From positions 1,638,438 to 1,702,437 of the forward strand of contig CAJINV010000005.1 in the NCBI GenBank assembly GCA_905178155.1: a stretch of 64,000 bases of DNA. The letters are read 5' to 3'. Numbering within the stretch: position 1 is the stretch's first letter; each line of letters begins with the position of its first letter. Origin of the DNA: Amoebophrya sp. A120. Its lineage: Eukaryota > Protista > Dinoflagellata. The notes beneath the pieces were generated by a model, which was not told the DNA's origin, did no database searches, and saw only the letters and a program-made list of their open reading frames with translations. Positions 1 to 63,900 of this stretch are shown one piece after another. A program made the translations under genes and the position numbers.

Positions 1-2082
1 GCGCCCACGTGAACCGCGGCGGCGCCCGCCATCGTGATGTGATTCTCGTTAATTGCCTCCACGTTTGGAAGCACGATGACGCCCACGTGGATCTGCTGGC
101 CGCATATCAAATGTAAAAGCGTCCCCACCCCATAGTCAAGTTGGGAACTTGGCAACACAAATCCAGAAGTTTTGGGAGGCATGCATGACAAGTTGCAGTC
201 CGTAGTGTGGTGCAGGTTAGCAACGGAAATCGCATCACAAATCCATCTGCTCATCCTGTTTCCAGCATTACAAATACCAAAACACGACTTAAAATACCTC
301 TCTTGGGTCTGCGCATGACAAATGTTCCTGTAGTCGCAAATCTGCATGACAACTCTGGGGTGGGGACGTTTTTACTAAGAATACCGCAGTGCTCCTTCCC
401 GAACTCTTTCCAGTACTCGTAGTCGCAGTGGATGCGGTCGCAGCCGCAGGTATTTTATCCTGTGCAAAAGTATCGTATTCGAGTCTCGCATTACAAATCT
501 TTTTATTAAGGCAAATCCGCACTACAAATTTTATTTCTCTTGCTGAAAAATTTGTAATGCATTTATACGAGTACGATACTTTTGCAATTCATATATTTTG
601 AGCGACCTGTTCCTCGGAACACAGCCGGGGATCGCATTCCCCCGCCGCGGTGTTCGACCCGATGGGCTGCTTCGTCCAGCACAGATCCGCTTTGCTCCCG
701 GGCTTCCGGAGGTCGGGACGTTTGCTGCTCGCCCACCACTCGTAGTCGACATACTTGCGGTTCGGGTCCGGCACGTCGGTCTCGGCCAGCGCATCCACGC
801 GCCAGATGTTCAGGTACTCGTTGCCCGTACCCGCGTCGTACATGGGGAAGTGCGTCAGGTGCCCGTCCTTCGAGTTGATCTGCTGTTCGTGCCCGTTGTT
901 GAAAATCCCCGTCGGTCCGTAAATCACCGTGTGTACGGCGTGGCGCCACGAGACCCAGTCGTCGTTCATGTGCCATTGGAACGGCACCAGGATCACGTTC
1001 AGCGCTTCGTGGCTGGGGCGGATGCCCGCAATCCGCCGGCACGTTGGTTTCCGGGGCGGCTCCGTGTCCCAGCCGAAACCCGGATTTTTCTTGCGCAAAA
1101 GTTGCTCGTGCGCCTCTGCAGCCTCCGGGGAGGGGTCGAGGTACTGAAAAATGTCTTCGGAATTGGGATTCGCGTAGTCGAAGAGTGGTCCAGGTGGGCC
1201 TTGGGACGGCGAGCCCTCCTCGCCGATCGTCTCGCTTCCGCCGCCGATCGCCCCGTCCGTTGCACCAGATCCCGACTCCGTGGACTCAGCGGCCACGGCG
1301 ACGGGTCTGTCGACGCACCGCTTCTTCCTTGCGAGAAACGTCTGTCGCAGTGTGGAAAACGAACCGGCCTTATAATTGGTCCTCGTGGACCTCGTTTTTC
1401 TGCTGCGTTCTTTTGTCGATGTAGTAGCTTCCTTGGTTCTTTCATGTTCCGTCGTGGATGTTGAGGAGACCGCGGAGAGCACAGATGACAAAGTAGAGCT
1501 GCGCGTGGACGAGGAGGGCTCATCTTCTACTTCGCGACGTGGTCTGACAACGTTTTTACTGGCGGACGTAGAAGCCGTAGAACTAGTGCTCCTGTTGGTC
1601 GAGGTGCTTGATGCTGGCGCTGGCCCGGAATTCTCCAATAGCTGACGCCGCCGAAGATCTCGAGCAGGACCACCATCCTCTACGTCGTGGTCTACTTCTT
1701 GCTGCAGGTTATCTTCTTCATCTGCTAGTGGCTCCGCTGCTAGAGGAGGCAAATCAACCTTGTTTTGAGGAGCATTGTCGTCGTCGTGTACGTGTTCCTC
1801 AGCTGTTCCTCGCTTGATGATTTTCGCCTTGACGATCTTCTTCGTGGTTTTCCTGCGCACCACGGTGAAGGCGGACGCCAGCTGCGTGATGTTAAGGAGC
1901 TGCTCAAGCTGCACGGAGAGACAAAGAAAGTGAATGTTGACAGCACTTCTCGAGCAGGAAACTGGACCGAGACCGACGATCGTGCGTAGTAGACCCGCAC
2001 TCGTGGTCCGTCTTCGTTGCCTCGCGTCGTTGTGAGCCCCGTCCATCTGACACACCGTCGTTCGTTTTAGAAACAACAACAA
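1..2082 (-). CDS. Hypothetical multi-exon protein, 3'-partial (runs off window start); low-complexity N-half, Cys/Trp-rich globular C-half
   Basis: 497-aa ORF 589-2082. Removing introners 456-593 and 105-383 (each plus one DR) extends the frame: ...EQVAQN|TCGCDRIHCDYEYWKEFGKEHCG|QQIHVGVIVLPNVEAINENHITMAGAAAVHVG. Start codon uncertain. Confidence 0.7.
105..383. mobile_element. Introner / non-canonical intron (family G)
   Basis: TAT...ATA ends; IR core AAAA.CGTCCCCACCCCA; perfect DR CCGCA (100-104 / 384-388); removal is in frame. Confidence 0.9.
456..593. mobile_element. Introner, family A (TGCAAAAGTATCGTACTCG IR)
   Basis: TAT...ATA; perfect DR TATTT; removal is in frame. Confidence 0.9.
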
Positions 2083-3300
2083 GACTGAAAGACTAACTTT
2101 TGAAGATGGTTCTTGCCATATGAATACAGGCTACTGAGCTCCTTGACGGCGAGTGGGGGGGCTCTTCTAGAGAAATTTGACGCTACACGACCGAATTCTA
2201 TCTAAGAAGTGGCTCATATAACAGCGAATTCTTATACTTGCAAAATAATCAACATGACTCACAGATACAACCGGCACAAGGAACATTTGTCATTGTTTAT
2301 TGTCTATGAGCAGGGGCGGGAAGTACAAGTAGCCTGTAGTTATGGGGTGCATCGCTAGGAAAATTGTACTGCGTCAATCTTTTGGACTACAGAAAACTTC
2401 TGATGAACCAAACAACGGAATAAAGATAAACATGATTGCATCGTTACTGTTATGCAAGCTGTCCGGAGAGGAAGCAAAAACCAACATACTTCTACGCAGC
2501 ACAGGCGAGCACGAGCAAATGTTCTTTTCATCTTTTTTCAGTTGTACGTAGCACATCAAAGAAATGGACGAGATGAAGGTGCCGCAATTTATTTTTAATG
2601 TCTCTATGTAAGGTAGGCGTACTCAACAAAACGCCCATAGAAGAGCACGACACGACAATGCGTTCATCTTCTTGCACGAAAGCTTCATTTCAAAATTAAC
2701 TTTTTTAATACTTGCAGAAGCAGTAGAACGACCAACAAGAGAAGCACGATTATTACACCGATAGACATGATGACGGACGATAAACCGAGTGCAAACGACG
2801 ATAAGCAGACGAGGGAAAAGGAATTCTTGTCGTGTTCAAGCAGGCTAATAGACATTCGACGGTTATTGTTTTTTTTTTACTTTTTTCTTTTTTGTTGTTG
2901 TTCAAGAACAACGAAGAAAAACACTAAACAACCAATACTTACAGCAGCGTGGAAGAAAAAAATGCTCGATATAAAGCGAAACCGACCACGAGACAAAGAA
3001 AACGCGTGCGGACGACGGACAGGAAACAATCACAATACGAATAAGTACACATCCAGATCGATGTTGCCACCGACGAGTGTCAATACTACAGATATCTTCG
3101 AGAACAGCTCAGCTTCTAATGCGACGCCGGCCCGGCGGCCGCGAGATGATGAATGAGGAACAATACAATCCTTAACCGTTGTACGATTTCACACCATCTT
3201 CATCTTGCGGCGCCAATGCCACAAGAAATAGGAACTCAAAGTATTCGTGAATTGATATTGATGGCCAACATCAATTTTAATAGCGCTGCGGTTCTTGCAA

Positions 3301-6300
3301 TCACAACAATGGCACGGTGCAAAACGGAATCTTGAGAGTCTGTACTTGATCTGAATCTTTCCCATTCCCACGATGCTCCTGCGCGGGGGCCGTTTTCATC
3401 CCTGCAGTTTCTGAGCTCGACGTCAACATTTCCGCCTCCTCCATCAGCTTCATCCTTACCGCCGTCGGGTCGAACACGACCCCCTGCCGTCCTCCACCTT
3501 GCTATGGATTGCAAAATGTCTGGGTCTGGAACAAGAGTGGAACTTGTAATGTTTGCGGATTCTGAAAATATCTGCGTTGCATGAGCAGCAAGAGGAGTCA
3601 GCTCTTGGCACGCGGAGAGGGCATTTCTCATGCGTAATTAGCATCAAGAGGCTCTCAAAAAATCAGTGATGCTAGCACCAGCATCACAGACCTCACGCGT
3701 CATGCAAAATGTGCATGACAAGCTCCGACTCTTCCAGACCCAGGCATTTTTGCATTTGATACTTGCCCGCCCTGCACCACCAGCACCTGCTTCAGAAAAG
3801 CCTGCCTGTACAGCGCTCGCTTATGAAAGCCTCAGGTTGGAAATCCTCAAAGTGAAAATAATTTGTAATGCAAAAAAAACGACTCCAGTTGAAGCACCAT
3901 TTATAGTCGGCGCATGACAAATTTCCCGGGCTGCACTCAAAACGTGTCTGTCATGCTAGTGAGGCAAAGGGGTGCGTTTCTGTCATGCTACTCAGCACTC
4001 CAATCCTTAACCCGTAGAAGCACAATAGTCGGCTTCCATTGCGTTCGCTGCAACACAGTCTTTTTGGTGGCGCATTCCATGCATCACAAATTATTTCCAC
4101 TTTGAGGATTTCCATTCTGAGGGTGTCATATCGCTGATCTTCCGCTTTTCGCCGCTCCACCTCTGCTGTCTTTCGCGCGGCTTCTATTAACTGCAAAAGT
4201 ATCGTACTCGTATAAATGCATTACAAATTTTCTCAGCATGAGAAATAAAATTTGTAATGCTGATTTGCCTTGAAAAAGAAATTTGTAATGCAAGATCTGC
4301 ATTTATACGAGTACGATACTTTTGCAGTTCATAGCTTCCAGCTCGGAGCAAAAATCAAGTAGCTGACTCCGGAGAAAGGAAGATTCTTTTTTTCTTGGTA
4401 TTTCATCTACTTTATCGTGTAGTTGTCCCGCCTCTCTGGAGGTTGTCTTTGGGCTACTACTACTAGTGTCAGGTCTTGCTTCTGGCGGTGTTTTTTTTAT
4501 CGAGAAAGGCTGTGGCTGGTCGTCGTTCGCTTTTTTTACTACAAATAGCTCCTTATTTCCTCCCATTTTTCCCTGGTTTGTTAGAGCTGGTGAACCACCA
4601 GGAGCTCGTGGATCATCAACAATGTCTCGACTAAGCACCGCTTCGACTTTATTTACAGGCAGCACTTTTAGCAGCGCAGATAACTCCTTTCGCAGCAACG
4701 TCCGGAAGTGCGGTAAGGGGGACAGACACCGGTTATGGATGTGTCAGAGTTGAAATCAACAAAGTTGAAATAATTTGTCATGCATAAAATGAATGCCAGT
4801 TGGAATCCAGTTTTCAAGTGGCGCATGACAAATTTCGGTGGTCCCTAGATCCAGTTTGTCATGCTGTTTAGGCAAAGAAGAGCGATTTTCTCATGCTACT
4901 TTAGCAGCTCGAGCTGTAACCCCGAACAGGCTTGCAATCGGCCTCACTTACCTGCTCTGCAACACACGTGCCTCGGGTCATGCATTTTATGCATTACAGA
5001 CTATTTCAACTTTGACGATTTCAAACCTGACGCTTCCATACCGGTAAATCTCAGGGTAGTGGTCGAGGTGGCACATCGCAAACTTGATCAGCTGTTCCTC
5101 TAGAGGACGGGTAGTTCTTTCAAGGACGGAGGTTGCACAGGAGGTGGTAACAGCAGTCATGATTGCACCTTCTTCACAGAAGTGGTCCACCATGTCCTGC
5201 TGCTCTTGAGTACTAGAAGAAAGCTCAACGTCACCATTCGACAGCGTGCTAGCACCAAGAACAGCTCCGGCTCCTTCCGACGTCCCGGCACTTGTTTCCC
5301 CCGCTGCTGCACCAGCCCAAGAGGCTGCGCTCTTTGTATGCAGCTGAAGGAGACACTGGCACAGGTGTTCGACATCCCCTGTTTTTTCCAAGACCAGCTG
5401 GAATAGCTGCTTGAGGTCGTCGGCATTACCTTCGAGAAAACAGTTCTTCACGTGGAAGTTGATTTCGCTAGCGAGTAAGCCAGAAGCGGAAGTAGACCAC
5501 GACCTGGGCGTAGTTGAAGATCCGGCCAAAGCTGATGATGTCCTTGTTATGCCTCCAGTAGTGGGACGAGGAGCACCACCTCCAGGAGCTCCTGACGCGA
5601 TGCCATGATCCAATGAAAAACGTCACACGGCAAGAAGGTCTGGCTTCGGATCATCGCATCATTAGCGCGCGGCACACTTTTTTGATTTTCGTTTTTCTGA
5701 GACCTAGTAATACTAGTACATGACCTTGATAAGATACATATAGTTCATTTGAGTACTCTAGGTTTGTTTCAGCTATGAACTCTTAATCTTCGTCCAGCTT
5801 GTTAATGCAAATTCTTTTTCCAGATCCACATCCAGTTTTACTTGCTGTGCGGTAGAAGCGAATTTGCAAAGCATATGACGAAGCCCCTGTAGTTACTCCT
5901 GTTCCTTCTGCATCACCATCCGGTGAATCCAGCGTAGCGAAGTGGTTTTCTTGTACCAAACTAGCGACGACGTCCTGATCTGTCTCGCCGAGCCGGTCTC
6001 GAAGCTGCTGCCGAAGTCCGGATGTTGAGGCACTGCTGCCAGAAGCGCCTGCAAAACTACACCAAGTGGCGACGAGGGTGTAGATGTCTTGAGTTCCACC
6101 ACGGTCGTGTGCAGGCAACGAATTCGAAGTACCATCCAGCAAAATAAAAGAAAAAGCTGCTTTCAAATTCTCTGCTGTTGTTTTCCTTGATCGCAATTTT
6201 GTCCTTCTCCAGAGATTCAGGACGAAGAAGCAACGCAAAGGGTCGGCCTGCGAATAAACCGCAAAGAGCTCCGCGTCGGATAGCAACGAGCGCAACCCGC

Positions 6301-15001: not shown

Positions 15002-18000
15002 TCAAAAGTTGTCGTCCCAGCCGGTGCCTGGGTCTCGGTACGGAATCTGGGGTGGCAAGTCGGCTTCCTGCGCTCGGAAGTTGCTCATGTCCGTGTTTCC
15101 CCGCACTTCCGGGATGTAGGGCGGGCGCGCGGTGTGGCTCTCGAGCGCGACAAAGTCAAACGCCCGGTACCACAGGTGCTCCTTCAAATTCTTCGTGCCC
15201 CCACTTCGCATTGGTAACCGCTCCGAGGGGCAGTGCTTCAGGAGCTGTTTCACGAGGTCCATCGCGTCGGGGTCGCGCTCGCGGTACGAAAAGTTCACGC
15301 CGTTCACACCACGGACGATTTTCTGGTATAGATTCGAAGTACGAGAGTCAAAGGAAGTTGTCAGGCAACCACTGAACAAACATCCATCAACAAAGTACCA
15401 CAACAAACACGGACAAATGCAAATGCACGACACGAAACATCTAAAAATTGTAATCCATCTTCACGACGTAGCATCAAGTTTATTCCTGGTTCTCGATCTT
15501 GGTATTGATCTGGTTGACAACCGTGTAGCTTCTACAAGTACAACTAGTACGTCAACATGAGAAGAAAAAATCTTCCTTTCGGAGTTGTAGTCTGATTGTT
15601 ATAAAAATATCAAAAAAAAATAAAATTATTCGTAAATACCTGGTATGTTTCCATGGGATCCTTTGCGTCGAACGGTGCGTGCCCGGAAAGCAGCTCGTGA
15701 ATTAAAATTCCCATATGAAAGCCTCAGGTTGGAAATCCTCAAAGTGGAAATAATTTGTAATGCAAAAAAACGACTCCAGTTGAAGCGCCATTTGTAGTCG
15801 GCGCATGACAAATTTCCCGGGCACTTAAAGCATGTCTGTCATGGCATGACAGACAAGGCAAAGGGGTCGTGCCCCTCTCGTCTCATGCTAAACAGCACTC
15901 CAATTCGTCACCCCTAGCAGGACAATGGTCGGCCTCCCTTGCGTCCTCTGCTATACAGTCTTTTTCATATCGCATTCCATGCATCACAAATTATTTCCAC
16001 TTTGAGGATTTCCATTCTGAGGCCTTCATATCCCAGTGTCCACCAGTCCACAGCCTTGTTCATGCCGGTCTGCTGAATCACTTTATCGCAAGAAAAAAGT
16101 GTTACAGTTACACACTGCGTTGCAAGACCGGCAACACAGACAACCTTTCTCATGTAGGAAATGCTTGGGAGCCTCGTTTCCTTCCTGTTTTCCCGTATGA
16201 TCTTCGCATCACAAGTTTTCTGTGCCACACAGAGAAAATTTGTGATGCAGAAACTCCAACAAATGTGTAACTGTAACACTTTTTTCTCGTGATACACTTC
16301 CGGTGCGAAGTAATCCGGTGTTCCGCAGGTCGTGTAAGTTTTCCCAGAAGTTAGGATCTATGATCCAGTTTTTTTTTTTCATCTAAATTGCTGACTACAT
16401 CAAAAAGTCGGACGATATTGAAGATGTTGATGTTGTAGATGCTACTGATACAACCAAAGACAAAGTTAGTACTAGTTCTAGTAGACATGCTAGTTGTATA
16501 ATATCACGAAATTGTCGATGTCAACACTGTAAATGCAGCTATCCAAGACGACGAAATGTACCTTTGCCAGACCCATGTCGGTGAGTTTGCAGAAGCCCTT
16601 CACGTCGAGCAGTAAATTTTCCGGCTTCAGGTCTCGGAACACGATGTTGCGCTCGTGCAAGTGCTCGAAGGCAAGCACGACCGACGCGGAGTAAAAGCGG
16701 GCCTTGGAGACCGACCCGTGAAACCGTCTCTTGTGGTAGGTCGCGAACAGCTCGCCGCCCATTGCGGGTTCAAGCAGGAAAAAGAGGCGTATCGAGAATA
16801 AATTCGCCGTACTACACGACGTACAAATGATCTTCGCAAATTGAAATTATATGCATGACAAAGGTCTAGTATAATTTGTTCTGTTAACACTTGTTCAGCA
16901 TTGCAAATTTATGCTTATTGAGCCGTCAAAATAATTTGTCATGCATTTCGTCCCTATGTACGGTAAATTTGTATTGCTTAAGGTGCTCCTTCGACTTGAA
17001 TGTCTGGTACAGAGCGATGATGAACTTCGATTGGCTATGAAAAGGAAAAAACCCCCCTCCCCATATCAAAAAGGAAATCTGTGATGCTGGATTTGCGTAC
17101 ACAAATCAGATTTGTATTGCAGGAAGGCATTGCGGCCAGATCCCCAGGCTAGGTAGGGGCGTATGGGTTTAGTTGCTCAGCATTGCAAACGGCTGACCTT
17201 TAGGCCCAGCAGCATGACAAATCGCTTCCATAATGGGGCGGAAGCTCTGCCCGTGTCTTCTTGCAAGACAAATGTGATTTGTGACCTCAAATCAGCAGCG
17301 CAAATTTTCGGAAAGATACCTTTTCGATATGGGGAGGGGGGATTTTTCCTCTCAATATTGGCACAGCAGGAGAATCTATGCATCGAAATTTTGTCTGGGT
17401 CTGAATTTACTCGGAAGACGCGAGCTTTGAAGGAAAGGGAGGACAGCAAAATTTGCAGTGCATGAATCGGATTGGCGGGTTTTCTACTTGCTGTGTGCAT
17501 TCATGCAGAACTTCCCGAATTACGAATACTAAATTCGAGAGGAACAAGGAACAAGCCCCCGCTCGGAGGAAAAATTTGTCATGCTCGCATGCTGGATCGA
17601 ACAGAGGACCTCCACCTTGACTCTGGCATGCTAAACTCAGCAACAGATGAAACTATCCGCTCCGTCTTTCCAGACCCAGATCGTTGATCTTTGCATTTGA
17701 TAGAATCTCCTTTTCCCGCATCACGCCTTTCTGCATCTTCATCTTCACGATGTACCCCTTGGACAAGGCCTTCAACGCATACACGTCCCCGGTTCGCTTG
17801 TGTTTTTCCAGCGTGACGGCACCGAAGCCCCCGCAACCGAGCAGCCCAAGCCGCTTCAGGTCGTTCAGGTCCACCTTCGGTCGCGTGCGGAGAATGGCGT
17901 TGTCAAAAGCTCTTACATCAGTTGTGATCGCTGTTGTTCTTGCATGGATTTTTTGTGATGCAAGGACAATGTTGAGAGCAAACCAAGAAAGCGGTTTGTG

Positions 18001-21000
18001 CGTATTGCATTTCAACTCCACGTTTCAATGCGGATGACCATGGGCGCGGCGTCGAAAACAGAACTTGCACAAGCTCCTTCGCATGATATGCGAAGGAGCT
18101 TGATCGCACGGGCACGACGCAGAAAGTGTGATGAAGATCATAGTAATTCTGCATGGCATCAAATTCAAATCCGAAAAATCATGCGACGGCGATATTGGTC
18201 TAAGAACGCTTGAGAACGCCATACCCAGCATGGCCGGGGTCTGCTTCGGGGCTGCTTTCTCGTCGATCTTCTTCCAAATATGCACGGAACAAAACCACGA
18301 GTATCGCGGTCGCGCACCGACGAGGTATAAAATGCTGCACCGCGATTATCATTGAAGCTTCCATTTCATACTGAACCAACTTACTTCGGACGATTCCCTG
18401 TGCTCGCAAGTAGATTGTCATCTACAAGTGCAAAAATCAAAAAGAAAAATTCGTGCGCGTCTGTCATCCACGCGAGCGATACTTTCAAACTTCACAGGAT
18501 ACTGCATTAATTCCTGCAACGGTCCGAGCAGGTGGTCGAAACGGGTGCGGGTCAATGCGAGACAAGAACAGGAAGCAGACGTGACCTTTTGTGTAGTTGC
18601 GTTTGTCATGATTAAGTAAGAAGCTACGGCTACCTCATAGATAAGTCATTCTACTTATAGTGCGGGAGCAGTACTAGATCTAGGTGTCGGTGCATATAGA
18701 ATGACAAGGTGGACATTAAAATTAACAACACGCGCACGGTTGTGAACTCAACATTCTTGATACATTATACCACTGCTGTAGCTTCTCTTGTCGCACTTTT
18801 TAACAGCGCCCGTTCCCCGAACCAGTGCGCTTCACCGCCCGGCGACGCTGTGATCGAGGCGACTTTCTTTCCACCCTTCAGGAAGTCGATAGAACCTGGT
18901 GCATTTATCGAAAATTCATCCAGCGTTTCATGTTACTTATAATATACCGAATGCAGCTGTCATGCTTAATATCGCACGCACACGCGAAGGACGTCGAATG
19001 GGTGTCACGCAATCTTTTTTTTTCGTCTAAATGTTGAAAACCAAGTACCTTCTGTGAGGATGTAAAAAGCGTCGCCATGCTCCCCTTCCACGACAATTTT
19101 GTCCTTTTCTACGTATCTGACCTCCGTGAGAGCCTCCGCCAGCGAGACCTTTTCGTCGAGTGTGAGCACGTTAAACAGGTCCACGTTGTCGAACACCTTC
19201 ATGTAGGTGGCCATCTTGCTGTCGTTCGCCTGCATCAGCGTGTGCTTGAAGTCCTGTATCGTGCGGAAAAATCCCCCCTCCCCATATCAAACAGGTATGT
19301 TTTGTTGCTGATTTGTGGCCACAAATCAGATTTGTCTTGCAAGAAGACAAGCGCAGGGGCTTCCATGCCCTTTTCGGAGGGATTTGTCATGCTGTTGGGT
19401 CTAGAGGGCAGCCGTTTACAACAATGCTAAACAACTAGACCCAAACGCCCCTACCTAGGCTGAAGATCTGGCTGCGATGCAGTATTGCAAGACAGCGCGC
19501 ATTTGTGTACGGAAATCCAGCATCAGAAACCTCGTCTCGATATGGGGAGGGGGGATTTTTCCTTTTGATATCCTGCCGCTCAATCACCCACACGCTCGCT
19601 TCCTCGGACACGCAGGTCACCGTCGCGGCCCGCGGCGCGTGGTACAGCAGGGCCAGTTCGCCAAACGACATCCCCGGCGTGGCCTGCCCGACGATGCCCG
19701 ACCGGTCGATCTCGTTCCCCGCCCTGCCTGGCCGTTCCGCGATGGAGAACTCAAACGTCCCCTTATGAGAGTGCACAACCGGTGCTCCCCCTCGTTCTCA
19801 TTTCTCGTGCAAAACACCAACTCCACACTTGTTTCCCTCCTCTCATTATTATGCATCACAAGTTCTGGTAGGAGCCCAAATAGCACTACACTCCAGTGCA
19901 GCAAATTTGTCACGCAAAACTACCGTACCGGCACTATTGCTGATGCTTGTATTGCCGTTCATGCTATACATATGAGGGGGAGGGGGAGTTGTGCACCCTC
20001 ATACCCCTCGGCCACGATGTAGAATTTCTCCGCAAAGAGCTCGCCCTGCTTGATCAGCGTTTCGCCCTTGGCGATCCCGGACTTTTTGTACGCGCACTGC
20101 GTCTATCAAATGCAAAAGTGTCTGGGTCTGGAAGATTCTGAGATTTGTCATGCATATTTTGCATGACCCAGGATGTCTGTAATGCACGACCTAGCATCAC
20201 AGATCTTTAGAGGGCTTCCTGATGCCTACTCCGCATGACAAATGCCGCCCTCCCCGCCTAGCACAAACGAGACCTCTCTTGCTGGTCATGCAATAAAGAT
20301 TTTTTTAGAGTGTAAAGTTAGCATCACAAGTTCCAACCTTCCAGACCCAGGCATTTTTACATTTGATAGCGTCAGCGCGTCCATTTGCTCGCCGTTGATC
20401 TGCATCACGGCCCGCAGATTCGAGTTCGCCCGCAGTCCCTCTTTGATCTGCTCCTTCTCCGCGTCCGTTTTTGGCAGCAGCGGTTCCCGTGGCTTCGAGC
20501 TGCCGCTTCCGTCTTCCTCGCCGCTCCCCTCACCGGAGGGCGGTGCAACGACGGCTTTTCGCTTCGCGAAGTGGAGTTTCGAAGACAGGTTGAACTGCCG
20601 AAACTTGTCGCGCGTGAGGCAAAAAGTCGTAACATCGCCCTTCGTGCGCACCGTGGCCGCCCGCGCGGCGCCCTTTAGGAGGGACTGCTCCCCAAAGTAG
20701 TCGCCTTCGCGGAGCGTTGCGACTGACTTGTCGGGCGGCGGACCCGCGACTGGCTCGACCTTTCGTTTTGAATTTGATACTTATGCGTGTTTATTGATGT
20801 AGTCCTTGGGGTCGTCGATGGTGCCGCGGGAGACCAATTGAAGAACAACACAAAGAACTTTGAAACAGTGGAGAAGATGATGATCCCTATACCTATTATC
20901 GCCACCACGATTATAAATTGCCATTGCCAGAAGTTTTTTAAATCTTTTCATCCAGCAAAAGTGACAGAGTTACTAGTCCGACCTCCTCGGGCAGCACACG

Positions 21001-22350
21001 TCCCCGGTACCCACTCTCGGCTACCCTGATCGTGTAGGGAAATTCTCGACTGGCGTCAAACTTGTCCACGGTGGCCAAGCTGCCTTTGTTGATCTTTCGC
21101 CCGCCAAAGTGCAGGTCTTTCAGACACTTTACCTTGTCGCCCACGTTCAGGTAATTTTGGGGGTGCACCAGAACTTCCACCTCACCCTTCTGAATCACGT
21201 AGAACGCGTCGCCCTTGTCTCCTTGCCGGAAGATAATGTGATCTGTTTTGATATACGTGAACAGGTGTCGAATCAAAAACAAAGAAAACATGCATAAACC
21301 ATGACAATGTATTGGATTTTATTTATTTTGACATCTTACACTGGAGTGGTGTCAACACGCATGACAACTTTACCTGCAGGAAAATTCTTGAGCTGCATCG
21401 CTTCCGCCAGCACCGGCATGTCCTCCTTGGGAAACCTGCTAAAGAGCGGCACGCCCTTGAGCGTCGATGCGCCGTATACATTGCAAATGTGTCTGGTACG
21501 TGGTGGTGGTCTCCTGCAACATTGCAAGACATGTGATCATGTTGCTGGTGGGGTACAACTAGCTATTAGCAAGACAATGAAACCTGTGACAACACATGCT
21601 GCGCAACAGTTCTGCTCGTTTGTGATACGAAAATGAAAATGCGACTTCTCATCCAGGGTAGGCAGCAGATGGAAGTAGATGGAGCAAAACTTGGTACATG
21701 GCTCCGTACCGCCTGTGCTCGATCTTGACAACTTTGTTCCACAGGACCCAGATGACATATTTGCACTTGATACGCTGCTCGACGACACAAAAGTTCTGCG
21801 AATGAGGGCATCTGCGGGAAGTAAATCGCGAGCGGTACGTTCCTATGCATTGCAAAAGTGTCTGGGTCTGGAAGGATGCAACGTGTAATGCTAATTCTGG
21901 ATCGTGCAAAAATCTGTGTTGCATGAATGCCAAAAGCTGTTCACTTTTGACCAAGTTGAGAGAAAGTTTCTCATGCAGGATAGGCATGGTAGGGATCTCG
22001 CAGAATCTGTCATGCTAGGTCCTGCATTCCAGACGACGTGGATCATGGAAAATCTGCATGACAAGTCTCGGAATCTTTATCTTCCAGACCCAGACATTTT
22101 TGCAGTTGATAGTTCGTTGTCGGCAGCCGCTGCGGCTGTTGACGCGGACGACAAACTATGAATTGCAAAAGTATCGTACTCGTATCGCAGTCATGCATTA
22201 CAAATCCTTTTCTTAAGGTCAATCCGCATTACAACTTTTATTTCTCACGCTGAGGAAATTTGTAATGCATTTATACGAGTACGATACTTTTGCACAGGAT
22301 ACGAACAGGCCACATCGGAGGATGAGGTATGGCCTCCGCAGCTGGAACTA
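15002..22350 (-). CDS. PKG: cGMP-dependent protein kinase (three cNMP-binding domains plus AGC kinase), >15 exons; 5' end uncertain
   Basis: cNMP motifs FGEQSLL..RAATV, SFGELALLYHAPRAATV and WFGERALL. Kinase motifs GCGGFG, YALKAL, FRDLKPEN, DMGLAK, CGTPDYFAPE and DWWTLG. AGC tail ends GWDDNF*. Contains both GT-AG introns (e.g. 15323-15639) and introners. Confidence 0.92.
15714..16030. mobile_element. Introner, family B, in PKG kinase domain
   Basis: Perfect DR TCCCA; removal gives DWWTLG|ILIHELLSGHAPF. Confidence 0.93.
16084..16294. mobile_element. Introner, family F (GAAAAAAGTGTTACAGTTACACA IR)
   Basis: Perfect DR CACTT; removal gives APEV|IQQTG. Confidence 0.93.
16790..16980. mobile_element. 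Degenerate introner in PKG
   Basis: DR AGGCG/AGGTG; eroded IR; removal gives KEHL|FFLLEP. Confidence 0.75.
17036..17357. mobile_element. Introner, family E (CCCCCTCCCCATATC IR)
   Basis: Perfect DR TTGGC; in frame (LLCQ|SKFII). Confidence 0.92.
17377..17702. mobile_element. Introner, family C
   Basis: Perfect DR GAATC; in frame (REKEI|LLLCQ). Confidence 0.9.
19257..19570. mobile_element. Introner, family E (opposite orientation to 17036-17357)
   Basis: Perfect DR TCCTG; removal gives IERQD|FKHTLM. Confidence 0.92.
19764..20003. mobile_element. Introner, family D (TATGAGAGTGCACAAC IR)
   Basis: Perfect DR CCCCT; removal gives IVAEG|TFEF. Confidence 0.92.
20104..20368. mobile_element. Introner, family C
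   Basis: Perfect DR GCGTC; removal gives MDALT|QCAYKK. Confidence 0.92.
21475..21772. mobile_element. Degenerate introner (family C-like)
   Basis: TAT...ATA; DR CGCCG/CGCTG; eroded IR. Confidence 0.7.
21844..22111. mobile_element. Introner, family C
   Basis: TAT...ATA; DR GTTCC/GTTCG. Confidence 0.85.
22157..22301. mobile_element. Introner, family A
   Basis: TAT...ATA; DR CAAAC/CGAAC. Confidence 0.87.
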
Positions 22351-24531: not shown

Positions 24532-24847
24532 TATGAAAGCCTCAGAATGGAAATCCTCAGCGTGGAAATAATTTGTGATGCATGAAATGCGACGCAAAAA
24601 AGACTGTACTCCAGAGGACGCAATGACGGCCGCCTATTGTCCTTCTACGCGTTAAGAATTGGAGTGCTGATAAGCACCAAAGGAGGGCACCCATTTGCGT
24701 TAACCAGCATGACAGACCTGCTTTGAATGCAAGAGAGATTTGTCGTGGTGCGCCGCCTAGAAGTGGCGCTTCAACTGGAATGCTTTTCTGCATATACAAA
24801 CTATATACTATTTCCACTTTGAGGATTTCCAGCCTGAAGCTTTCATA
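24532..24847. mobile_element. Introner, family B (reverse orientation); host exon not identified
   Basis: TAT...ATA; long IR; DR ACCAT/ACAAT. Confidence 0.88.
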
Positions 24848-32620: not shown

Positions 32621-32692
32621 CACGCCCCCGCAAGAGCGCCGACTGTAGGAAAAATAGCGGGAAAATAAAAAGCCTGGCGCCGGGGGCGGCTC

Positions 32693-37546: not shown

Positions 37547-37620
37547 TTCCCCGGATCACCGTCGAAGCTCGCTTGGGCTCCTTGGCTAACTCGAAGGCGA
37601 AGACCGCTCCGAGTGATAAA

Positions 37621-37653
37621 GAGTAGCAAGCCTGCTACTCCGCTACCTACCAC
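37621..37653 (-). promoter_or_regulatory. Putative primer-binding site with adjacent hairpin
   Basis: The minus strand reads G-TGGTAGGTAGCGGAG immediately after the 5' LTR. Overlapping 8-bp stem GAGTAGCA-agcc-TGCTACTC (37621-37640). Confidence 0.6.
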
Positions 37654-38488: not shown

Positions 38489-41400
38489 CTACACGACGAC
38501 CTCCGCGCAGTACGTGACATCCTCTGCCTCGTCCCCAGGACGAGCACCACGATCAGAAACCACCAAAACTTCCTATGCAATGCAAAAGGAAAAGCATCGT
38601 ACTACTATAAATTGCATTACAAATTAGCCCAGCGTTACAAAATGAATCAGCATGCTGATTTGCCTTGAGAAAGAGATTTGTAATGGTGCATGAATGCAAT
38701 TACTACGAGTACGATACTTTTGCACGGGCTACTTCCCGCTCCTCGGCGATGTCGCGCAGCAACCGCAGGGGCGCGCTCGTATCCTGTGCAAAAGTATCGC
38801 ACTCCTACTCGTATAAGTGCAAGTCTTGCATTACAAATCTTGTTCCCAAGGCAAATCAGCATCACAGATTATATTTCTCATGCTGAGTAAATTTGTAATG
38901 CATTTATACGAGTACGATACTTTTGCACTTCATAGCTCGACACCGTGCCCAACTTCGGCGCGTCCTTCCGCAGAACCAAAATCTTATCAAATGTAAAAAT
39001 GTCTGGGTCTGGAAATTTGTGATGCTGAGTGGCGTAGCATGAGGAGGCCACAAGTGCTGGCTCAGCATGACAAATTTCTGAGCTCGTAGGCGTTGCCTAT
39101 TCTGCATGACAAACTGCGTCTCCGCATGACAGAGAAAAAGATCTCTTGGGCAATGTGCATGACAGATTTAAGAGTCATGCCAGACAAGCATGACAAACAT
39201 GCATTCTTCCAGACCCAGACACTTTTACATTTGATAAATCTGCGTGTACAGCAAATTTGCCGGCAGGTCGCGCAGCAAGGACACCGTGAACTCCTGCACT
39301 TTTTGCCGCAATTTCGGGTACACGGGATTGCAGACGACGAAGCACTCGAAAGCGGACAGAGCGTCCACGATAGAAACCGGAAGTCGATTCCGAATCGACC
39401 GCTCCACGCCCAAGGCCGCTAGGTAGAGCAGCCCGCTGTTCTTGATAAAATCAACTCTTTTAGATTTGGAGGAAGGTACAAATGATGTTGTTCTACTGCT
39501 AGAAGTAGTTCTAGTAGTTGTGCCACTGCTAGTACTAGCAGCCGAAGTAGACGTACTAGAGTAGTTTTGGTTATAATTTTCTCTGTCCTCTTTCAGTTTC
39601 ATCGTCGGCCCCCAAGCGGCCGGATTCAACAGTAGCCAGGCGTGGGCGATTATCGCAAGAAAAAACTGCTTCACTGTGAACTTGTGATGCAGAAAATGGA
39701 TCGCATAAGTGTGTATCATGCCCCACATGCAAGACAATGGATTTTTAGCTGTGTTTTCCCTTAGGAACCCCGCATGACAGATTTTTAGTGTCACGCGTAA
39801 CAAACTTGTGATGCAGATTTTGCAAAATCACCACAGTGAAACAGTTTTTTCGTGCGATAGCGATGGAAAAACACGCGCGGGGATCCACGGTCTTCTCAAA
39901 CCGGAGTCGCGCGGCCAACGACTCCGTCCAGTTCTGGACCAGAATGTTCGTGTGGTTGTGGGTGTGGGCACTTCTGCGCGCGATGGTTTTGTAGACAAAA
40001 CAGAGCTGGGAAAAATCCAGGCGTATGCAGCAGTGCAAAAATCCAGGCGTAAAGTTTACTGTATTTTCGAATTCGTTTGCAAAAATAATGCGTACTAGCT
40101 GAACCAGCATCACAATCAACATGACTAATCCGATTAGACCGAGGACACTTTATTTCTTTGCATTTTTCATAAAGCGGTTCATTTTTCCCGGGTACTCCAT
40201 GTTCTCCACTGCGTTTTTGCCTCGTTTGCGCCGGAGCAGCACCGTCTGCGGTCGCTTCATGTACTCGAACCGCGTAATGTCAGCTTCCTCCGAAAGGTCG
40301 AGCCGATCGTATGAGAGTGCACAACTTGAGCCTCCACCCTCATTTGTGGTGCCTGAACTCGCCGTCAAAAAGCGGCCTTAGCCTGCAGGTTTTGAAATTC
40401 AGAAACTGACGCGAGATTGTACTGCCGTTCGGGCTGCGAAATAAACCGGTCGTCCTGCAAACAGTGCCAAGAAGGAGCAAGCACTGGGTGTGGGTCCGGC
40501 TTTTGGCATGAAAAATGAAGATGAGTAGGAGTCAGTTGTGCACTCTCATAGGTCGCCGAGCAGTTGCACGACCGCACCCTGGATTTGCGTGATTTTGTCC
40601 AGGTGTTCCGACGTTTGCCGCCAATGCATTGAAAAAGTAACGCACTTGTACAAAAAGTAAGACTGCATTGCAAATCCCTTTCACTTTCTTAAACCTAAAC
40701 GTCAATTCGCCTATACATCAAACTCCGGCTCTCATGCTTTAGAAAATAATTTGTGTTTATTGTCATACGATTTCTACAATTAGTACAGTACAACTTTTGC
40801 ACAGGATAACCCAGTTTTTCGAGCAAATCTGCGGTGATCAGTAAGTGGGCCGCCGTCCGGACCGACGTGATGTGCGCGGCGTTCGTCGCCAGCGATTCCA
40901 GCGCTTTCTGCAGCACCGCCCGGGCGAGCGGGAGGTCGAGGTACGTTTTGCTCAGCGCCAGCCGCTTCGCCCGCCGGGTTGCGCGCCGTTCCTTCAGCGT
41001 CCTGGCGCCGTCGCGCAGGAGTTTTTCCGGGATCGAGTCCGGAATGTGCCACGTCGCCATGCTGTGCCGGTACCGCCGGACCATGGTGAAGTCCTCCGTG
41101 GTCGTACCTCTGCTGTTGGTGCTGTTGCTGTCGGCACGAGCATTATCGTCTTTACGAGCATGATTTGCATTATCGTCTTCGATAGTTCTTCTCTTTCCCT
41201 CCGGCTTTATTTTCGTCGTGCCACTGCATGCTGCATAGGACTCGTTGAGGTCAGCATGCCTTGGTGCAGCTGCTGCGTCATCTATTTCAGGTTTTTCAAC
41301 ATAATTCTCGGCTTCTGTATCTCCCTCCGTTTGCTCCTCCTGCTGCGGGGATTTATTTTTTACAACTTCTACGCTCAACAAATCTACTTCTGGCCTCGCG

Positions 41401-45476: not shown

Positions 45477-45893
45477 TCAATGACCTGACGCTTCGCTTCC
45501 ATAAAACGCTATCGGCGCGTTGTACTGCTTCGGAAACATGGGATGGTCCGGCTGGTCGTCATAATTGAAACGCAGCAGGTTCACCAGAATCGCGTACACC
45601 GGGATGTTCAGCATCCGGCACCAGAACACGCGATTTTCCGGATTTTTGTCCCACAAAGACGAAAACGCAAGCACGGCCAGGGACAACGCGCACGCTTCGT
45701 AGGCGCAGACGAACCGGCCCATCAGGACGTGAAATTTCTTCGAGGGAGCCAAAGCGGAGTGTCCGCGCGCATACGCCTCCGGGTCGTAGAGAAGCTGCGT
45801 GCTCACGACGAAAGAAATCAGGGAGCAGATAGTGATGCTTGCCTTCGTGGCGTAGCGCTGCAGGAGATGAGAGGTCAATGAAAGGGACGACAT
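45477..45893 (-). CDS. Small hypothetical membrane protein (3 hydrophobic segments; 3' end may be spliced)
   Basis: 138-aa ATG-initiated ORF with GC3-rich codons typical of real exons here. Confidence 0.6.
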   Translation of the reverse strand: MSSLSLTSHLLQRYATKASITICSLISFVVSTQLLYDPEAYARGHSALAPSKKFHVLMGRFVCAYEACALSLAVLAFSSLWDKNPENRVFWCRMLNIPVYAILVNLLRFNYDDQPDHPMFPKQYNAPIAFYGSEASGH

Positions 45894-50873: not shown

Positions 50874-53800
50874 TCAGTACGCGTAGGTATGGCAGTGGGA
50901 AATACTTTTTTCCGAAAAACTTTTTTTTTTTGCTACATATGGGTCACCCACCGCGGTTAGGAGATAGCTTGTTGGCGGCGGAAATCAATTGCGTAGCAAC
51001 AACGCCCGCCACGGTGTTCTGAGCTCGGTAGCCTGAAGGCAGAAAGATGGCCGCATTGGTGGCGCACTGCGTCACGGCTTTGGGTCCGTCATGGCCGGCG
51101 TAGATGTCGAGCAGCCAGCCCCTGCAAAGCTGCCGGCTTAATGACAGCAATACGCGGCCACCCCAAAGCCAGAGCGAGGTGCTGCGGGCTGGAGCCAACA
51201 ATAGGCCCACGCCCCAACAGGCGAAACAGGCGCCCGCGCGTAGCCTTTGAGTATATTCAAAGCCATGCGCGGCATTGCCGGTGAAATTGATGCCGCGGCC
51301 GCGGCGCTCTTCCGGCCTTGGATCTCCGGGGGCATTTCTTCGCGCCGGCTGTTTTGCACGGAGGCCAGCAGAGTTCCCTCCTGGGCTGCAAAGCGATATC
51401 CTCTTGGGGTGCCCCCGAGGGGTCCCCCAAACCCCCCCTCCTTTGGGGCCTCTTCAGAGAGCTACTCCCCCTTGATATCTCCACGAAAGGGGGTCCCCCA
51501 AACCCCCCCCCTCAAGGGGGGGGGGGGCCGACCCCGCTTTTCGTTTGCGCAAGTTTGCAGATTTTCATAAGATAGTTCTTGAACAGCCACAGCGCGAATC
51601 CGGGCAAGGCGGAGACTTGCACTGCCTGGCCGGGAATAAATTCAAGGGCGCCGAAGGTGTCAGCCTATCCTGTATTTGCCGCGGGGGGCGCTTCCAAAGC
51701 TAGGGCGGGCCATGCCTCGAGGCCGTCCGCGTTTCAAACTGTCGCTTCTAGGCGAACCAGTCAGAATGTCGCTGACTTACCCTGAAACCCCTGCCCATAC
51801 ACCAAAGCCGCGGCAGAGGCCTCGCGTGTCACGTACCTTGAGGCCACACCGCCAAGGACTGAATCCATGGCCGCGGCTGCTCCTGAGGCCACCTCTCTCC
51901 TGCCTTCCGGGTAGCTAGCTAAGTTCTAGGCGGCATCTCTACGCCTATGCAGATCTGTTCTGCGCGTGCCGGCTTGTGTACGTATGAAGTGCCGTAAAAT
52001 CATATGTAGCGAAAAAAAAAAGTTTTTTTGAAAAAAGGATTTCCCATTGCCATAGTAGGATTGCTCCACATAACTCCGCAACTCCCCCAGTCGTTGCTCG
52101 TACGTCTGCGCAATGTGCAAGGCTAAATGGTCGCAGACGTCTGCTTATGCATCGCAAAAGCAGGTCTGGGGCTGCAAGGAAGTCGTGGTGCGCAAATCTC
52201 GTGAATGTTGATGAACGCACTAGTACCATATCCATAGTCATCTTCAAGCATGACGAGAAAGTTATTTCATGATAATGCGACTTCGTCTTTGCATCACACG
52301 CAGAAGGACCTATTTTTTTTCATGTTGGAGCACATCGATCATGGCGCATCATTGAGAGTGAAGCTTAAGATAAGGTGTGGGTGTCTGTGAGACGAAGTGG
52401 TAAGACTGACAATTCCTGCAATCTTTCAGACCCAGACATGTTTACGCTCGCTACCGCCAGACCACTGTTATCCATGGCGGAGATTCCGAACGTATCCGGT
52501 GCAAAAGCATCGTACTGCAACTTGGAACTGCAGAACAGCAATACAAAATCAAAGCTACTGTCAGACTCAGACGCCTTCATCCTGCTCCAGCATTTCAAAA
52601 AAATTTATGATCCGCTTTTCTCACTGACGTAGAAATTCTCGTGATGCAAACAAGAGGAAGTCGTACGATATCATATTACTTTTGCAGTGCATAGAAGGGG
52701 ATCAGCTGCAAGTCCGGGCGGTTGCGCATAAAATCACTCTGGTCCTCCTCTGAAACTCGCCTGCAGGTAGACGAGTCGTTCTTGTTCGCGACGAGGCAGA
52801 TACAGCAGGGTATTTGGCCCTCGACGGCCTTGTCGATGGAGGGAAGGAACTGATCAGGAATGCATTGCAAGCACGTCTGGCTCTGCCTTTCGGAAGAAGC
52901 TCATGCATCCAGCGGGACATACAAAAATCCTTGCTGCGTGAGCAGGAGCGAAAGAAACCCTCAATACACCCTGCTCACGAAATCTGTGATGCAAATGCTG
53001 AGACTTTTTGTAAGCAAGAAATTGTGGGGCTGCAAACTGCTCTGCAAGGCAAACATCTTTCTAAGTACTTCATCTGCACTGCTCCACCAGACGCAGACCC
53101 AGACACATTTACCTTTGATATGAAGTTCCCTCAAACTATCCGGATCGGAGACGTCGTACGTTATCCACTGCAAATATCGATCTGGGTCTGGAAATTTGTT
53201 GATTCTTGGATGAGTGAAACACTTTCAAGTGCGCCTAAGCATGGGAAAACGCTTCCTCACATGTAGCTCGCATACGGGATGGAATTACAAAAAGAACGAC
53301 AAACTTCTAGAAGAACAACTGCGATTTATTTGCATGGCAAAGAAAGCTTCGCGTTTGATTTCGGTTAGATTTTGATTTTTTTCCGGAAGAAATCAACCGG
53401 GTGCTCGCTTCTTTAGGCGAGCGAGTGACTGTTGTACGTGCTAATTGAGTTCCTGAGAGTAAGTGGCAGGCAAGCTGTGTTTCAACAATTTGCCACCAGA
53501 ACTTGACTAAAAAACACCCGTTTTGATGTCGAACAGCCAAGACTGGGGAGTTGCCTCGGAAAAATTGCACCGGGATGCTCTTAGTCCTTGGCTTCAGGCG
53601 GGACTTGCACTACCTCCTCATCCGTGCTAGTCCTACCAACCTCCGCGCAGCCACGAGGTCCAAAACAAGCCGCCTCTGCTTGCCCTTCCTCGTGTCCAAC
53701 AGGCTCCTCAAAGCTGGCAGGTCCTAAGAGAGCCTCCTCTGCTCTCCCTTCCTGTCAACACCGCCGCAGCCGAGGCTTTAGCGATGGCACGCAAACGCCA

Positions 53801-60930: not shown

Positions 60931-63900
60931 TCAATTTAGAAAGTTCAGCAGCAGCTTTATCTTCTCATCCGCCTGGGCCAGTTGCGTCAAACTTTGTTTG
61001 TGCGGCAAGAGCTGCTGCTTCACATGCTGTTTGTAATCCGGGATCTCGCGAATCATGTAGTCTCCACCGTCCGCGCCGTTATGCATCACAAAAGTACAAT
61101 CGCACTATCATGACCATATTGAGGTTGAGAAATTGCATCACATATTTTTTTAGCAACAAACTGGAATTCATGCTGCTGCAGCAGCAGGAGCAGCTTTATC
61201 ACGTAATGAAAAAGAAACTCTGGTAGTTGTACCAACATGCAGTGTATCGATAAATGCAATCTACACGAGTACTAGAAGTCCGATACAACTTTTGTACAAC
61301 AGGATAAGCGTCGGCGTTCGACAGTTTGGAGTTATCCACAGAAAAAAACCCATCCACATCCATTTTTTGCATGACAAACGCAGGATTTTATGTATGTTTT
61401 GCATGACAAATTGGATGTGGATGGGTGTTTTTTCCTGGATAGGAGTACGTGCCTTCGTACACCGTTTGTCCGAAGGTTGGGTCCTCGGCCGCGCCCGGGC
61501 CGTATCCTGTGCAAAAGTGTCTGGGTCTGGAAGATTCTGCGACTTGTCATGCACGTTTTGCATGGGCCATGATGTCTGTGATACATGCCCTAGCATCACA
61601 GACTTTTTGAGGGCTCTGTGATGGCTATTCCGCATGGCAAATGCCCTCTCCGCGTAGCCAAAATTGCATCCCCTTTGCTGCTTATGCAATACAGATTCTT
61701 TTGGAATCCAAATGCAGCATCACAAGTTCGGATTCTTCCAGACCCAGACATTTTTACATTTGATAGGCCGCCCGCCAGGCTGATGTCGGGGATGCCGGGT
61801 ATGCTGACCGCGGGCGTGAGGAGCTGCTGCGCGGACACGACCGAGGAGCTACTCAAGCTGGCGACGCCGAGGAGTTGCGCGAGCTTCACGCACGCAACTT
61901 TCCCGTCCACCCCCTGCTGGAAGAGCAGCTGAGTCAGGGCCACCGCAGCGATTTTACGTTCCGGCGGGGTCTGCATCAAGTCCAGCGCCGCCATCCACAC
62001 GTTCGTCATGATCTGCTGAAACAACCCAGGTTGCATGCGTTCGAGGATGTCGCGGAGGCTCGCCGCGCCACGCTTCCACTGTTTTTTCGTTTATTTTCAT
62101 GTGAAAAAGACCTTCGAAGATCTTCATTTTTATCCGGGTCGTGACTGAGTAGAAGTCCTGCTAGCGTGGTCGCTTGTTGTGCATGTGTTTGCATAATATG
62201 ACGTATACTTTGAATCGCATCTATGGGTCTACGTCAATCTCTATTACTTCTATTTGCTCAAAAAAATCATAAACTTGTCTCCATGATGTTGATACCACGA
62301 AAATACTGGCCGCCAGCACGAAGTGCTTCTTCATCCGGACGTCGCTTTTCCTTGACATCAGTGCGGTTAGTGCAACCTTGAAAATGACGTCCACTGTGGA
62401 GGAATACATTTCGAAGGGGAGGTACGCGAACACCGCACCGAGCAGGTCGAAGGCCATGCCCTCCGTTTTTCGGTTGTTCAAGGTTCCTTCGAACCTCTTC
62501 AGAATCTCCCCCATGTTCTGCTGCAACAGCGCGCGGAAGTGCTCGTGCCGCGAGAGGTAGCTTTTCAGAAACCGAACCAAGGCGGGGATGTTCGGGTGCT
62601 TCGTCCAAAACTCGAGATGCATCAAAGTTTGGAACAGCTGGGAGTACACGGGTTTCACCTGGAGTAGGTGGGGTTGTAAAAATAACATCGGGATAGTGGG
62701 TCATAATTATTTTGGTGTTGACGGTGATGTTCATCCTGGCACATGGAAACCCTGTTCCTGTTCCCAACGCCACCAAAGCTTCAACCGTGCGGCGGTCTAG
62801 GTCTTCATCAAGCGAAAAAAATAATTCAAAAAAAGTTGTAGTTAAAAACCGTATCGGGCAAAACATCAGAAACAGAATCCCACATCGTATAATTTGGTTT
62901 TGCTTTTTACCTCCTTCGTCGAGTCCAGTAGCAATCCGAGCACCTGGAAGACGTACGGTAGGAAATCTTTCATCACCTCCCCCTGAAGGATGAACCCGCA
63001 CACCTTCAGCATCTGCCCCTCGACCTCGTCTAGCTTGCCCGTCGGTTGTGTATGCACCGCAACTACAACCATGTCTTTGTGTGTCCCCCGGGTCTGGAAA
63101 ATAATGAAAATGATCCTCATAATCAATCAATGCAAGGTTTAGGTTTGTCATGGTTTTTATGCTCCGCGCGTATAACAACAATTCTACTGAAGCGGTCTGT
63201 CACGTACAGTACCCAAAGGCCCCATCATGATGCCTCTGTCAAGCCCAAACGCACTTATAATGGAGATGCGAAACAGACAAACCCTGCCACAAGAAACTCA
63301 AAAATTTGTCATGCTTGTCCGTCAATTGCGGCGTGCGCGCGCTGCTCGTGGTCGTGGTCAACCAGCAGCACAATTTTCCAGATATTGACCCAGACTACAT
63401 GATGATAGTTGCGATGCATAATGTGCGACCTTGATGATGACCGCCACGCCCTCGAAGAGAAAGTGGGCGAACGACGGGTGTTTCGGATTTGCCGCAATTT
63501 GTTCCAGGAGCTGCGTCGACTTCTGCAGCATGGGCACCGCGATATCGCCGGCCGAGTGTTTGAGGAACAGAAAAATGCGGACGATGCACCGCATCAAATA
63601 CTCGTTCTGTTCGATTCCCCTTTTCTCCGTCAAGATGTTCACCATGGGCTCGAGCGCGGTTCTGAGCAAGGCGGACAGCTGCTGGGGCTGGAACTTCAGG
63701 TTCCCAACAATAGTTTGCGGTGTTTGCGTTTGGTTCGCCCCACCACTGCTCACGTTGCTGTTTGCCGTGCCCATTTCCCTCACCATGATGATCTTCTCGA
63801 TCGCGTGCGCGGCGCATCACGGTGCACAACTGTCCCTCACGACGGAGCCCCCTCATTTGTCATGCTTAACAGACTTCTGCGCTACCTAGCCCGGGCAGCA

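Follow-up and report, generated by a model that had tools for sequence, protein, structure and literature searches.

A spaced sequence motif shared by introner families, a putative transposition site on duplex DNA

Introduction

Along a 64,000-nucleotide stretch of contig CAJINV010000005.1 (hereafter the window), genes are interrupted by introners, short elements with inverted ends that double as non-canonical introns, and within these elements one motif, GCAT[G/T/C]ACAA, recurs on either strand. What reads this motif, and at which stage of an element's life? A first-pass annotation had taken it for a common protein-binding code, serving either as a subterminal transposase site or as the recognition tag of the non-canonical splicing machinery. 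Our analysis indicates that the motif is a real cis-acting code and apparently an undescribed one; it is probably a site on double-stranded DNA for the transposase or integrase that mobilizes the elements, or for a helper of that enzyme, the elements likely making up a single superfamily of MITEs (miniature inverted-repeat transposable elements) with TA ends and 5-bp target-site duplications (TSDs).

Results

Abundance and placement of the motif

The nine-base core occurs 63 times in the window (38 matches on the plus strand and 25 on the minus strand), far above the background of 100 dinucleotide shuffles of the same sequence (mean 2.14, maximum 8). Its matrix consensus, GCAW-N-ACARR, holds about 16 bits and has T-rich or AT-rich flanks that are loosely palindromic; the density of matrix sites was 20.6 per kb within elements, compared with 1.76 per kb outside them and 0.42 per kb in shuffled sequence. 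Among the strict matches, 48 fall within called elements, 3 in remnants detected with motif-masked profiles and 5 more in old copies detected with unmasked profiles; the other seven, at 21359, 40107, 47651, 58112, 58167, 58197 and 58748, lie outside every called class. No strict match was found in a 12.7-kb element flanked by long terminal repeats (LTRs; 25458-38138) or in three long exons, in keeping with what had been noticed at first for the retrotransposon and the long exons, nor in six stretches between or beside genes. Three GT-AG introns hold no matrix site, and Rfam gave no match in the window. The 15 positions listed in the first-pass annotation were all right to within 2 bp (182 becomes 183, and minus-strand sites start at 3863, 16240 and 20145). 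The core of its motif stood as well, whereas the extended version with a terminal (A)T accounts for only 39 of the matches and misses four of the examples given for it (183, 344, 16206 and 19853).

Structure and families of the elements

A scan with the terminal inverted repeat (TIR) of one family, C, recovered 147 loci, nearly all from a single assembly (JACKZZ01 contigs), which hold the same families as the window at up to 95% identity. The analysed set, consisting of 524 kb of these related contigs together with the window, is by design enriched for family C; seven loci contained within others and the overlapping parts of three loci were dropped before counting, as were L043, L055 and L124, which belong to other assemblies, lack the motif and differ in GC content. 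The protein of one related locus has its best named match in Amoebophrya sp. A25 (50%), a weak search of the window's CSE1 exon against longer proteins returned no homologue, and no viral contig matched the family C TIR. A wider call gave 414 elements, comprising 13 families (376 copies) and 38 singletons, with one false call in 516 kb of shuffled sequence; the letters A, B, C, D, E and F denote families 1, 7, 0, 6, 4 and 2, respectively.

The elements are 109-322 bp long, start with TAT, finish with ATA, carry inverted repeats of roughly 30 bp and are flanked by a 5-bp duplication. Their family-weighted end consensus is T 1.00, A 1.00, T 0.98, with A at 0.67-0.88 in positions 11-15, a fit that is weaker in families 5, 6, 7 and 12. 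Among the 377 elements that were called from the TIR alone, the TSD is an exact 5 bp in 284, 4 bp in 2 and 6 bp in none, and the elements display no target-site preference. Being short and non-coding, with TIRs, a TSD of fixed length and a high copy number, they have the properties of MITEs; summed contig depth in run X1, a rough guide only, reached 10^3-10^5 on element bins compared with about 30 elsewhere. The ends, TAT-N7-AAA within inverted repeats, are those of A120-type introners and, from this end consensus together with the family lengths and the co-oriented genes, we infer that the elements are introners of the Amoebophrya A120 type.

The strict 9-mer is present in 357 of the 376 family members and in all 13 families, and 407 of the 414 elements have a site scoring at least 10, mostly 4-6 copies each, with site number and orientation varying among families. 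When the motif and the outer 16 bp were masked, most family pairs did not align (z < 5 relative to 40 shuffles), the pairs that did being 4/10, 5/12, 3/6 and 6/10. The initial description of the families as unrelated thus holds for their interiors and fails for their ends, where the TAT, the A-run at positions 11-15 and the 5-bp TSD are common. The most fitting view of the elements is a single superfamily whose TIRs are of about ten types and whose interiors are unrelated. The idea that the motif copies the TIR was considered and rejected, only 1 of 26 consensus ends scoring above 3 with the matrix. Families 0, 1 and 3 (for example, the copies at 456, 38780 and 61503) share a pool of outer 15-bp ends, and their left and right ends are often mismatched at positions 4-7 (identity 0.41-0.74), which suggests an exchange of ends among families.

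Spacing of sites and distance from element ends

Sites in the same orientation lie 31-33 bp apart in 17 pairs among 12 family consensus sequences (family 10, a relative of family 4, was omitted), compared with 2.1 expected and a maximum of 8 in 5,000 permutations. This spacing is present in 10 of the 12 families, spacings of 9-30 bp are depleted (5 versus 15.9 expected), and the 22-24-bp spacers between paired sites are unrelated in sequence from family to family. The 31-33-bp spacing also accounts for 11 of the 25 close pairs located outside every called element and remnant. An example opens the window (elements are listed unstranded; signs give the strand of sites):

105..383, family 3 introner, TAT...ATA, TSD CCGCA; six sites, all plus, at 152, 183, 232, 265, 313 and 344, with pairs 31, 33 and 31 bp apart

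The first inward-reading site clusters 31-32, 39-43 or 52-54 bp from the end, and each of the 26 consensus ends has a site no further than 54 bp in; in family C this distance is 32 bp for 48 ends, 39-41 bp for 232 and 33-37 bp for 8. A period of 10-12 bp fits the end distances (R about 0.8, the values not being independent), and the 32-bp spacing may correspond to three helical turns. Like the subterminal sites of transposases, the motif recurs close to each end and is conserved in lineages that propagate.

Conservation and decay of the motif

The families have end features in common and some are related (4/10, 5/12 and 3/6), as would be expected if the motif merely reflected common ancestry or a shuffling of modules, without function. 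In trees of eight families, the rate of change of core columns, relative to that of the interior, was 0.21 on internal branches and 0.35 on terminal branches, and it stayed below 0.4 in each family, so the motif does not decay like its flanks. This three- to fivefold slower change relative to the adjacent interior, together with a spacer whose length is fixed though its sequence is not shared and with site numbers and orientations that differ among families, largely refutes descent alone, which we regard as scarcely credible. The protein-binding code proposed at the outset is supported because the motif is far above background, conserved much beyond its flanks and held at a fixed spacing of 31-33 bp across interiors that do not align; neither of the two outcomes named in advance as refuting it was seen.

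After insertion, the cores decay at the pace of the TIR core. At columns invariant on internal branches, terminal change affected 130 of 5,089 positions in motif cores (2.55%) and 220 of 8,393 in TIRs (2.62%), close to the TSD mismatch of 3.2-4.8% per site that served as a yardstick, and in 123 older copies identity was 93.1% for cores, 91.7% for TIR cores and 64.7% for interiors. A set of 63 old copies, found with motif-masked profiles, held 133, 38 and 25 sites in three main age bins, matching the 130, 40 and 21 of a neutral simulation scaled to the TIR core, and no extra retention of the motif relative to the TIR-core rate was seen in these copies. The motif therefore does persist in decayed elements, as had been claimed, only no better than the TIR core does. 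Coding and other copies did not differ in core change (P = 0.50) or in sites kept (0.78 versus 0.74, P = 0.19), the 'non-coding' class being impure in both comparisons. The decay pattern fits selection acting when elements multiply; a constraint after insertion, shared with the TIR, could be present, and the 4-6 redundant sites could mask one.

Orientation of sites

The elements are removed from RNA without GT-AG, and the outer sites of several families, each about 41 bp from its end, are turned towards one another. Both facts would suit a motif acting in pre-mRNA, either as a strand-specific tag read by an RNA-binding protein or small RNA, or as an extension of the terminal hairpin. The orientation of sites argues otherwise. 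Family 3 has its six sites in a single orientation within the element, and the sites of families 3 and 8, all in one direction, cannot pair. Among 16 family 3 copies in coding regions, 8 present GCAU-sense sites only and 8 UUGU-sense sites only (splicing of these copies was deduced from reading frames rather than RNA; strand calls agreed with Pfam-labelled open reading frames (ORFs) wherever compared by eye, the call for one copy, L030, being doubtful). Across 217 coding copies, 183 have sites in both orientations, 17 in one only, 16 in the other only and 1 has no site, unlike the fixed orientation in pre-mRNA of a strand-specific splicing signal. In family C, the variable base of the facing outer pair matched in 27% of 149 copies compared with 44% expected, and the extension of a hairpin by facing sites was rejected for lack of pairing covariation. 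Orientation symmetry, the lack of pairing covariation and decay as fast as that of the TIR core make a strand-specific RNA tag unlikely, a verdict softened a little by the loosely palindromic flanks, and action of the motif in RNA seems to us very improbable. Of the two roles first suggested for the code, that of a DNA site used at the transposition stage fits better, and that of an RNA recognition tag is disfavoured.

A putative site for the mobilizing protein

Under the reading that we favour, a site on duplex DNA used in transposition, a protein oligomer would contact both sites of a pair, which would lie some three helical turns apart on the same face of the DNA, and would help to assemble both element ends for cutting. 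Elements that lost their sites would cease multiplying, so that no family would be left without the motif even as TIR blocks and interiors drifted; removal from RNA of the element with one TSD would rely on the ends and not on the motif. Random 5-bp TSDs and TA ends match the A120 family fam38, which has Copia/Gypsy-like ORFs, and this makes an integrase-type protein the leading candidate; the mobilizing protein would presumably be an integrase-type transposase or a helper factor.

Several points weigh against a transposition site. No transposase or integrase domain was found by Pfam in 23 ORFs of the window and 117 of the loci, and Farhat et al. (PMC7789003) report no transposase in A120 and take this to exclude mobilization by one. 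The TIR blocks at positions 16-30 are family-specific yet conserved, which usually means different transposases, so that a single shared binder needs an extra assumption. One element of 1,167 bp has TAT ends and a 5-bp TSD without any site, and the end distances advance in steps of about 9 and then about 12 bp, not exactly 10.5. Sites have a slight sense bias (646 versus 720, P = 0.048, sites being non-independent). The 'non-coding' control is impure, since it includes the element at 17036-17357, inside the kinase gene described below, and the TIR core used as a yardstick may itself be kept for splicing, so that equal decay is no proof of neutrality.

No autonomous partner was found in the approximately 0.59 Mb searched. 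The long TAT...ATA elements with perfect TSDs seen there numbered just two, a family B copy in L020 and the motif-less 1,167-bp element, and the longest ORF of each had no Pfam match. The L020 copy (505-1608) contains a GC-rich repetitive insert of about 780 bp. The 1,167-bp element is flanked by a duplication of host sequence of at least 53 bp (window 50822-52107), and the loci contain no second copy of it; in length it comes near A120 fam103 (about 1,190 bp) and in TIR length near fam38.

Elements of the window and their host genes

The elements interrupt minus-strand genes, including those for a cNMP-dependent kinase and for CAS/CSE1. Besides the family 3 introner given above, the window contains the following:

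456..593, family A introner, TSD TATTT; sites 488+, 519+, 535-, 552-
3503..3761, family C introner, TSD CTTGC; sites 3572-, 3625-, 3681+, 3713+
3822..4130, family B introner, TSD TCGCT; sites 3863-, 3912+, 3948-, 3980-, 4081+
4185..4333, family A introner, TSD GCTTC; sites 4218+, 4236+, 4252-, 4283-
4734..5040, family B introner, TSD CCGGT; sites 4775-, 4823+, 4856-, 4888-, 4991+
15714..16030, family B introner in the cNMP-dependent kinase gene (minus strand), TSD TCCCA; sites 15755-, 15803+, 15981+
16084..16294, family F introner, TSD CACTT; sites 16206+, 16240-
17036..17357, family E introner, TSD TTGGC; three pairs, 17079/17112-, 17180/17212+, 17263/17295+
17377..17702, old family C copy; site 17576-
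19257..19570, family E introner, TSD TCCTG; an RNA-like contig joins 19571 to 19251
19764..20003, family D introner, TSD CCCCT; sites 19802-, 19853+, 19907-
20104..20368, family C introner, TSD GCGTC; seven sites, among them 20145/20177- and 20290/20321+
21844..22111, family C introner, TSD 4/5; five sites
22157..22301, family A introner, TSD 4/5; sites 22195+, 22226+, 22260-
24532..24847, family B copy, TSD 4/5; sites 24573-, 24707+, 24729+
38780..38934, family A introner, TSD GCTCG; four sites
38985..39236, family C introner, short-end variant, TSD AATCT; six sites, beginning 32 bp in from the left end
39651..39859, family F introner, TSD GCGAT; three sites
40310..40550, older copy resembling family D, within coding sequence; an exception, with no site scoring at least 10
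50888..52054, TAT...ATA element of 1,167 bp, 54-bp TIR, TSD GTAGG; an exception, with no motif site
61333..61441, family 8 introner of 109 bp, TSD GGAGT; little more than two TIRs and one 32-bp pair, 61369+ and 61401+
61503..61765, family C introner in the CAS/CSE1 gene, TSD GGCCG; five sites
63815..63904, remnant resembling family D, left part; site 63857-

Two further TAT...ATA elements with perfect 5-bp TSDs, at 22328-22630 and 45255-45503, have no motif site and are either old or of a different group. At 47554-48846 a 1.2-kb insert without TAT ends lies between 44-bp direct repeats of coding sequence; its two sites have the same orientation, one lying 53 bp in from the left end and the other 45 bp in from the right, and 60 bp of the insert match L066. 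Ends resembling those of family C stand about 1.07 kb apart at 53161-54236 around a different interior, possibly through nested insertions, and a near-perfect 53-bp palindrome lies outside genes at 23954-24006. The 12.7-kb element at 25458-38138 has LTR-like repeats of 485 bp with 96.5% identity, and Pfam assigned only DUF4326 to its long ORFs, with no reverse transcriptase or integrase match. In the related assembly, L017 holds a C-5 cytosine DNA methyltransferase gene (2624-6079).

Removal from mRNA

A 5,939-nt contig of run X5, which is guessed to be RNA, follows the exons of the kinase gene and also skips GT-AG introns. It joins 19571 to 19251, the 319 missing nucleotides equalling 314 + 5; across the gap 19758-20369 it has lost 515, equal to (240 + 5) + (265 + 5), and across 15322-16562 it has lost 1,059, equal to GT-AG introns of 317 and 204 plus (317 + 5) + (211 + 5). 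One direct join and two exact length sums thus indicate that five elements were removed with exactly one TSD each; with X5 only guessed to be RNA, this amounts to removal from mRNA without canonical splice sites. When an element is cut out together with 5 bp, the frame stays open and coding-like in 213 of the 414 cases, compared with 47-56 for frame-shifting cuts.

A GT/GC-AG register is available in just 11 of the 175 coding copies with a perfect TSD, so these introns require some other definition. A host protein bound to the motif as a mark on DNA might provide it, flagging the element on the template and recruiting the machinery that removes it from nascent RNA, possibly with a part in mobilization too. 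Such a duplex mark would be free of orientation, as observed; at least one site is kept in 216 of the 217 coding-region copies, a single motif spans many TIR types, pairs at 31-33 bp remain where family profiles fail to match, and U1 small nuclear RNA was undetected in A120 (PMC7789003). Set against this are the lack of extra site retention in old copies, the similarity of coding and other copies in core change and sites kept (with an impure control), the coding-region copy at 40310-40550 that has no site, and the terminal change of cores, which at about 2.6-3% does not fall below the TSD mismatch used as reference. We consider a DNA-level host mark, the main rival reading, unlikely, if conceivable. 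A fuller version, in which one host DNA-binding protein reads the 32-bp-spaced code, licenses amplification and marks introners on the DNA template for exact excision of the element and one TSD, without U1 or GT-AG, so that introns would be defined on DNA rather than on RNA, we hold to be unlikely as well.

In run X9 (raw RNA), 592 reads fall almost solely on 4017-4130, the right end of a family B copy, with different letters, and extend into sequence absent from the window; 159 of them carry a template-switch adaptor at their start, which falls at the position matching 4017, 33 bp ahead of the pair of sites 4050/4081. An abundant transcript may have its 5' end in one family B copy located elsewhere. 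No X9 read covers the kinase exons. These adaptor-led starts, and an apparent resemblance of pairs at fixed spacing to the site of a transcription-factor dimer, are consistent with paired sites serving as an internal promoter or enhancer through which source copies are transcribed, or opened for a copy-out step. The X9 signal is, however, a single locus in one run, TIRs with a sharp 5-bp TSD fit DNA transposition, site orientation varies freely among families and the stretches between genes hold no strict match, making a promoter or enhancer improbable.

Discussion

Farhat et al. (2021, PMC7789003) describe tens of thousands of non-canonical introns in A120, whose elements, split into 1,954 families, have inverted repeats and ends reading TAT, seven variable bases and then As. 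The elements analysed here agree with these introners in their TAT-N7-A-run ends, inverted repeats, non-canonical removal and very high copy number. Direct repeats there are 3-5 nt long at variable positions, and no internal motif is given in the passages covered; here, in contrast, a sharply defined 5-bp duplication lies outside TAT...ATA, and the families are united by a spaced motif in their interiors. Gozashti et al. (2025, PMC12130899) list A120 fam38, a TIR element with ORFs matching Copia/Gypsy and annotated '5-bp TSD, TA/TA Termini'. It has the same TSD length and termini as the present elements and differs in its length (about 808 bp) and its TIRs of 49-53 bp, the comparison being one of descriptions only; other A120 families in that source have lengths of about 107, 149, 209, 234, 260, 278 and 305-321 bp, matching families here.

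The elements also resemble Ginger2/Tdd, TIR elements with an integrase-like protein among which TDD-4 and TDD-5 give 5-bp TSDs (Bao et al. 2010, PMC2836005, in part). Ginger ends are TGTNR and Ginger2 targets RTATAY, whereas the elements here end in TAT and have no target preference; membership of the Ginger superfamily was rejected on the termini. Neither the motif nor its spacing, nor a 5-bp TSD common to these families, is described in the introner and MITE literature covered, including parts of the reviews PMC11282704 and PMC11453091; Roy et al. (2023, Curr Biol) and Farhat et al. figures such as S19-S25 lie outside that coverage. The motif strings are also absent from the available supplements of PMC12130899 (files 13 and 14 excepted) and PMC9860276.

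Taken together, one motif, a fixed spacing, TAT ends and a 5-bp TSD fold the A120 families into one likely superfamily. The motif pair offers a defined DNA bait for finding the binding protein, and the motif itself a marker for old introners with eroded ends. The question of how the elements are spliced is narrowed, since a strand-specific RNA tag is disfavoured.

Subterminal repeats act as cis sites for transposition in hAT and CACTA elements, and Tn7 and Mu combine 5-bp TSDs with several sites per end; in such systems of MITEs and TIR elements, the sites are mostly family-specific and near the ends. The short repeated sites described here are like those of the Stowaway elements Ost35/Osmar14, in which short cis sites inside the TIRs raise MITE transposition (PMC3660474, in part). 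In contrast to all of these, one motif extends here over about ten TIR types and the whole element, arranged as pairs 32 bp apart, and the elements also serve as non-canonical introns.

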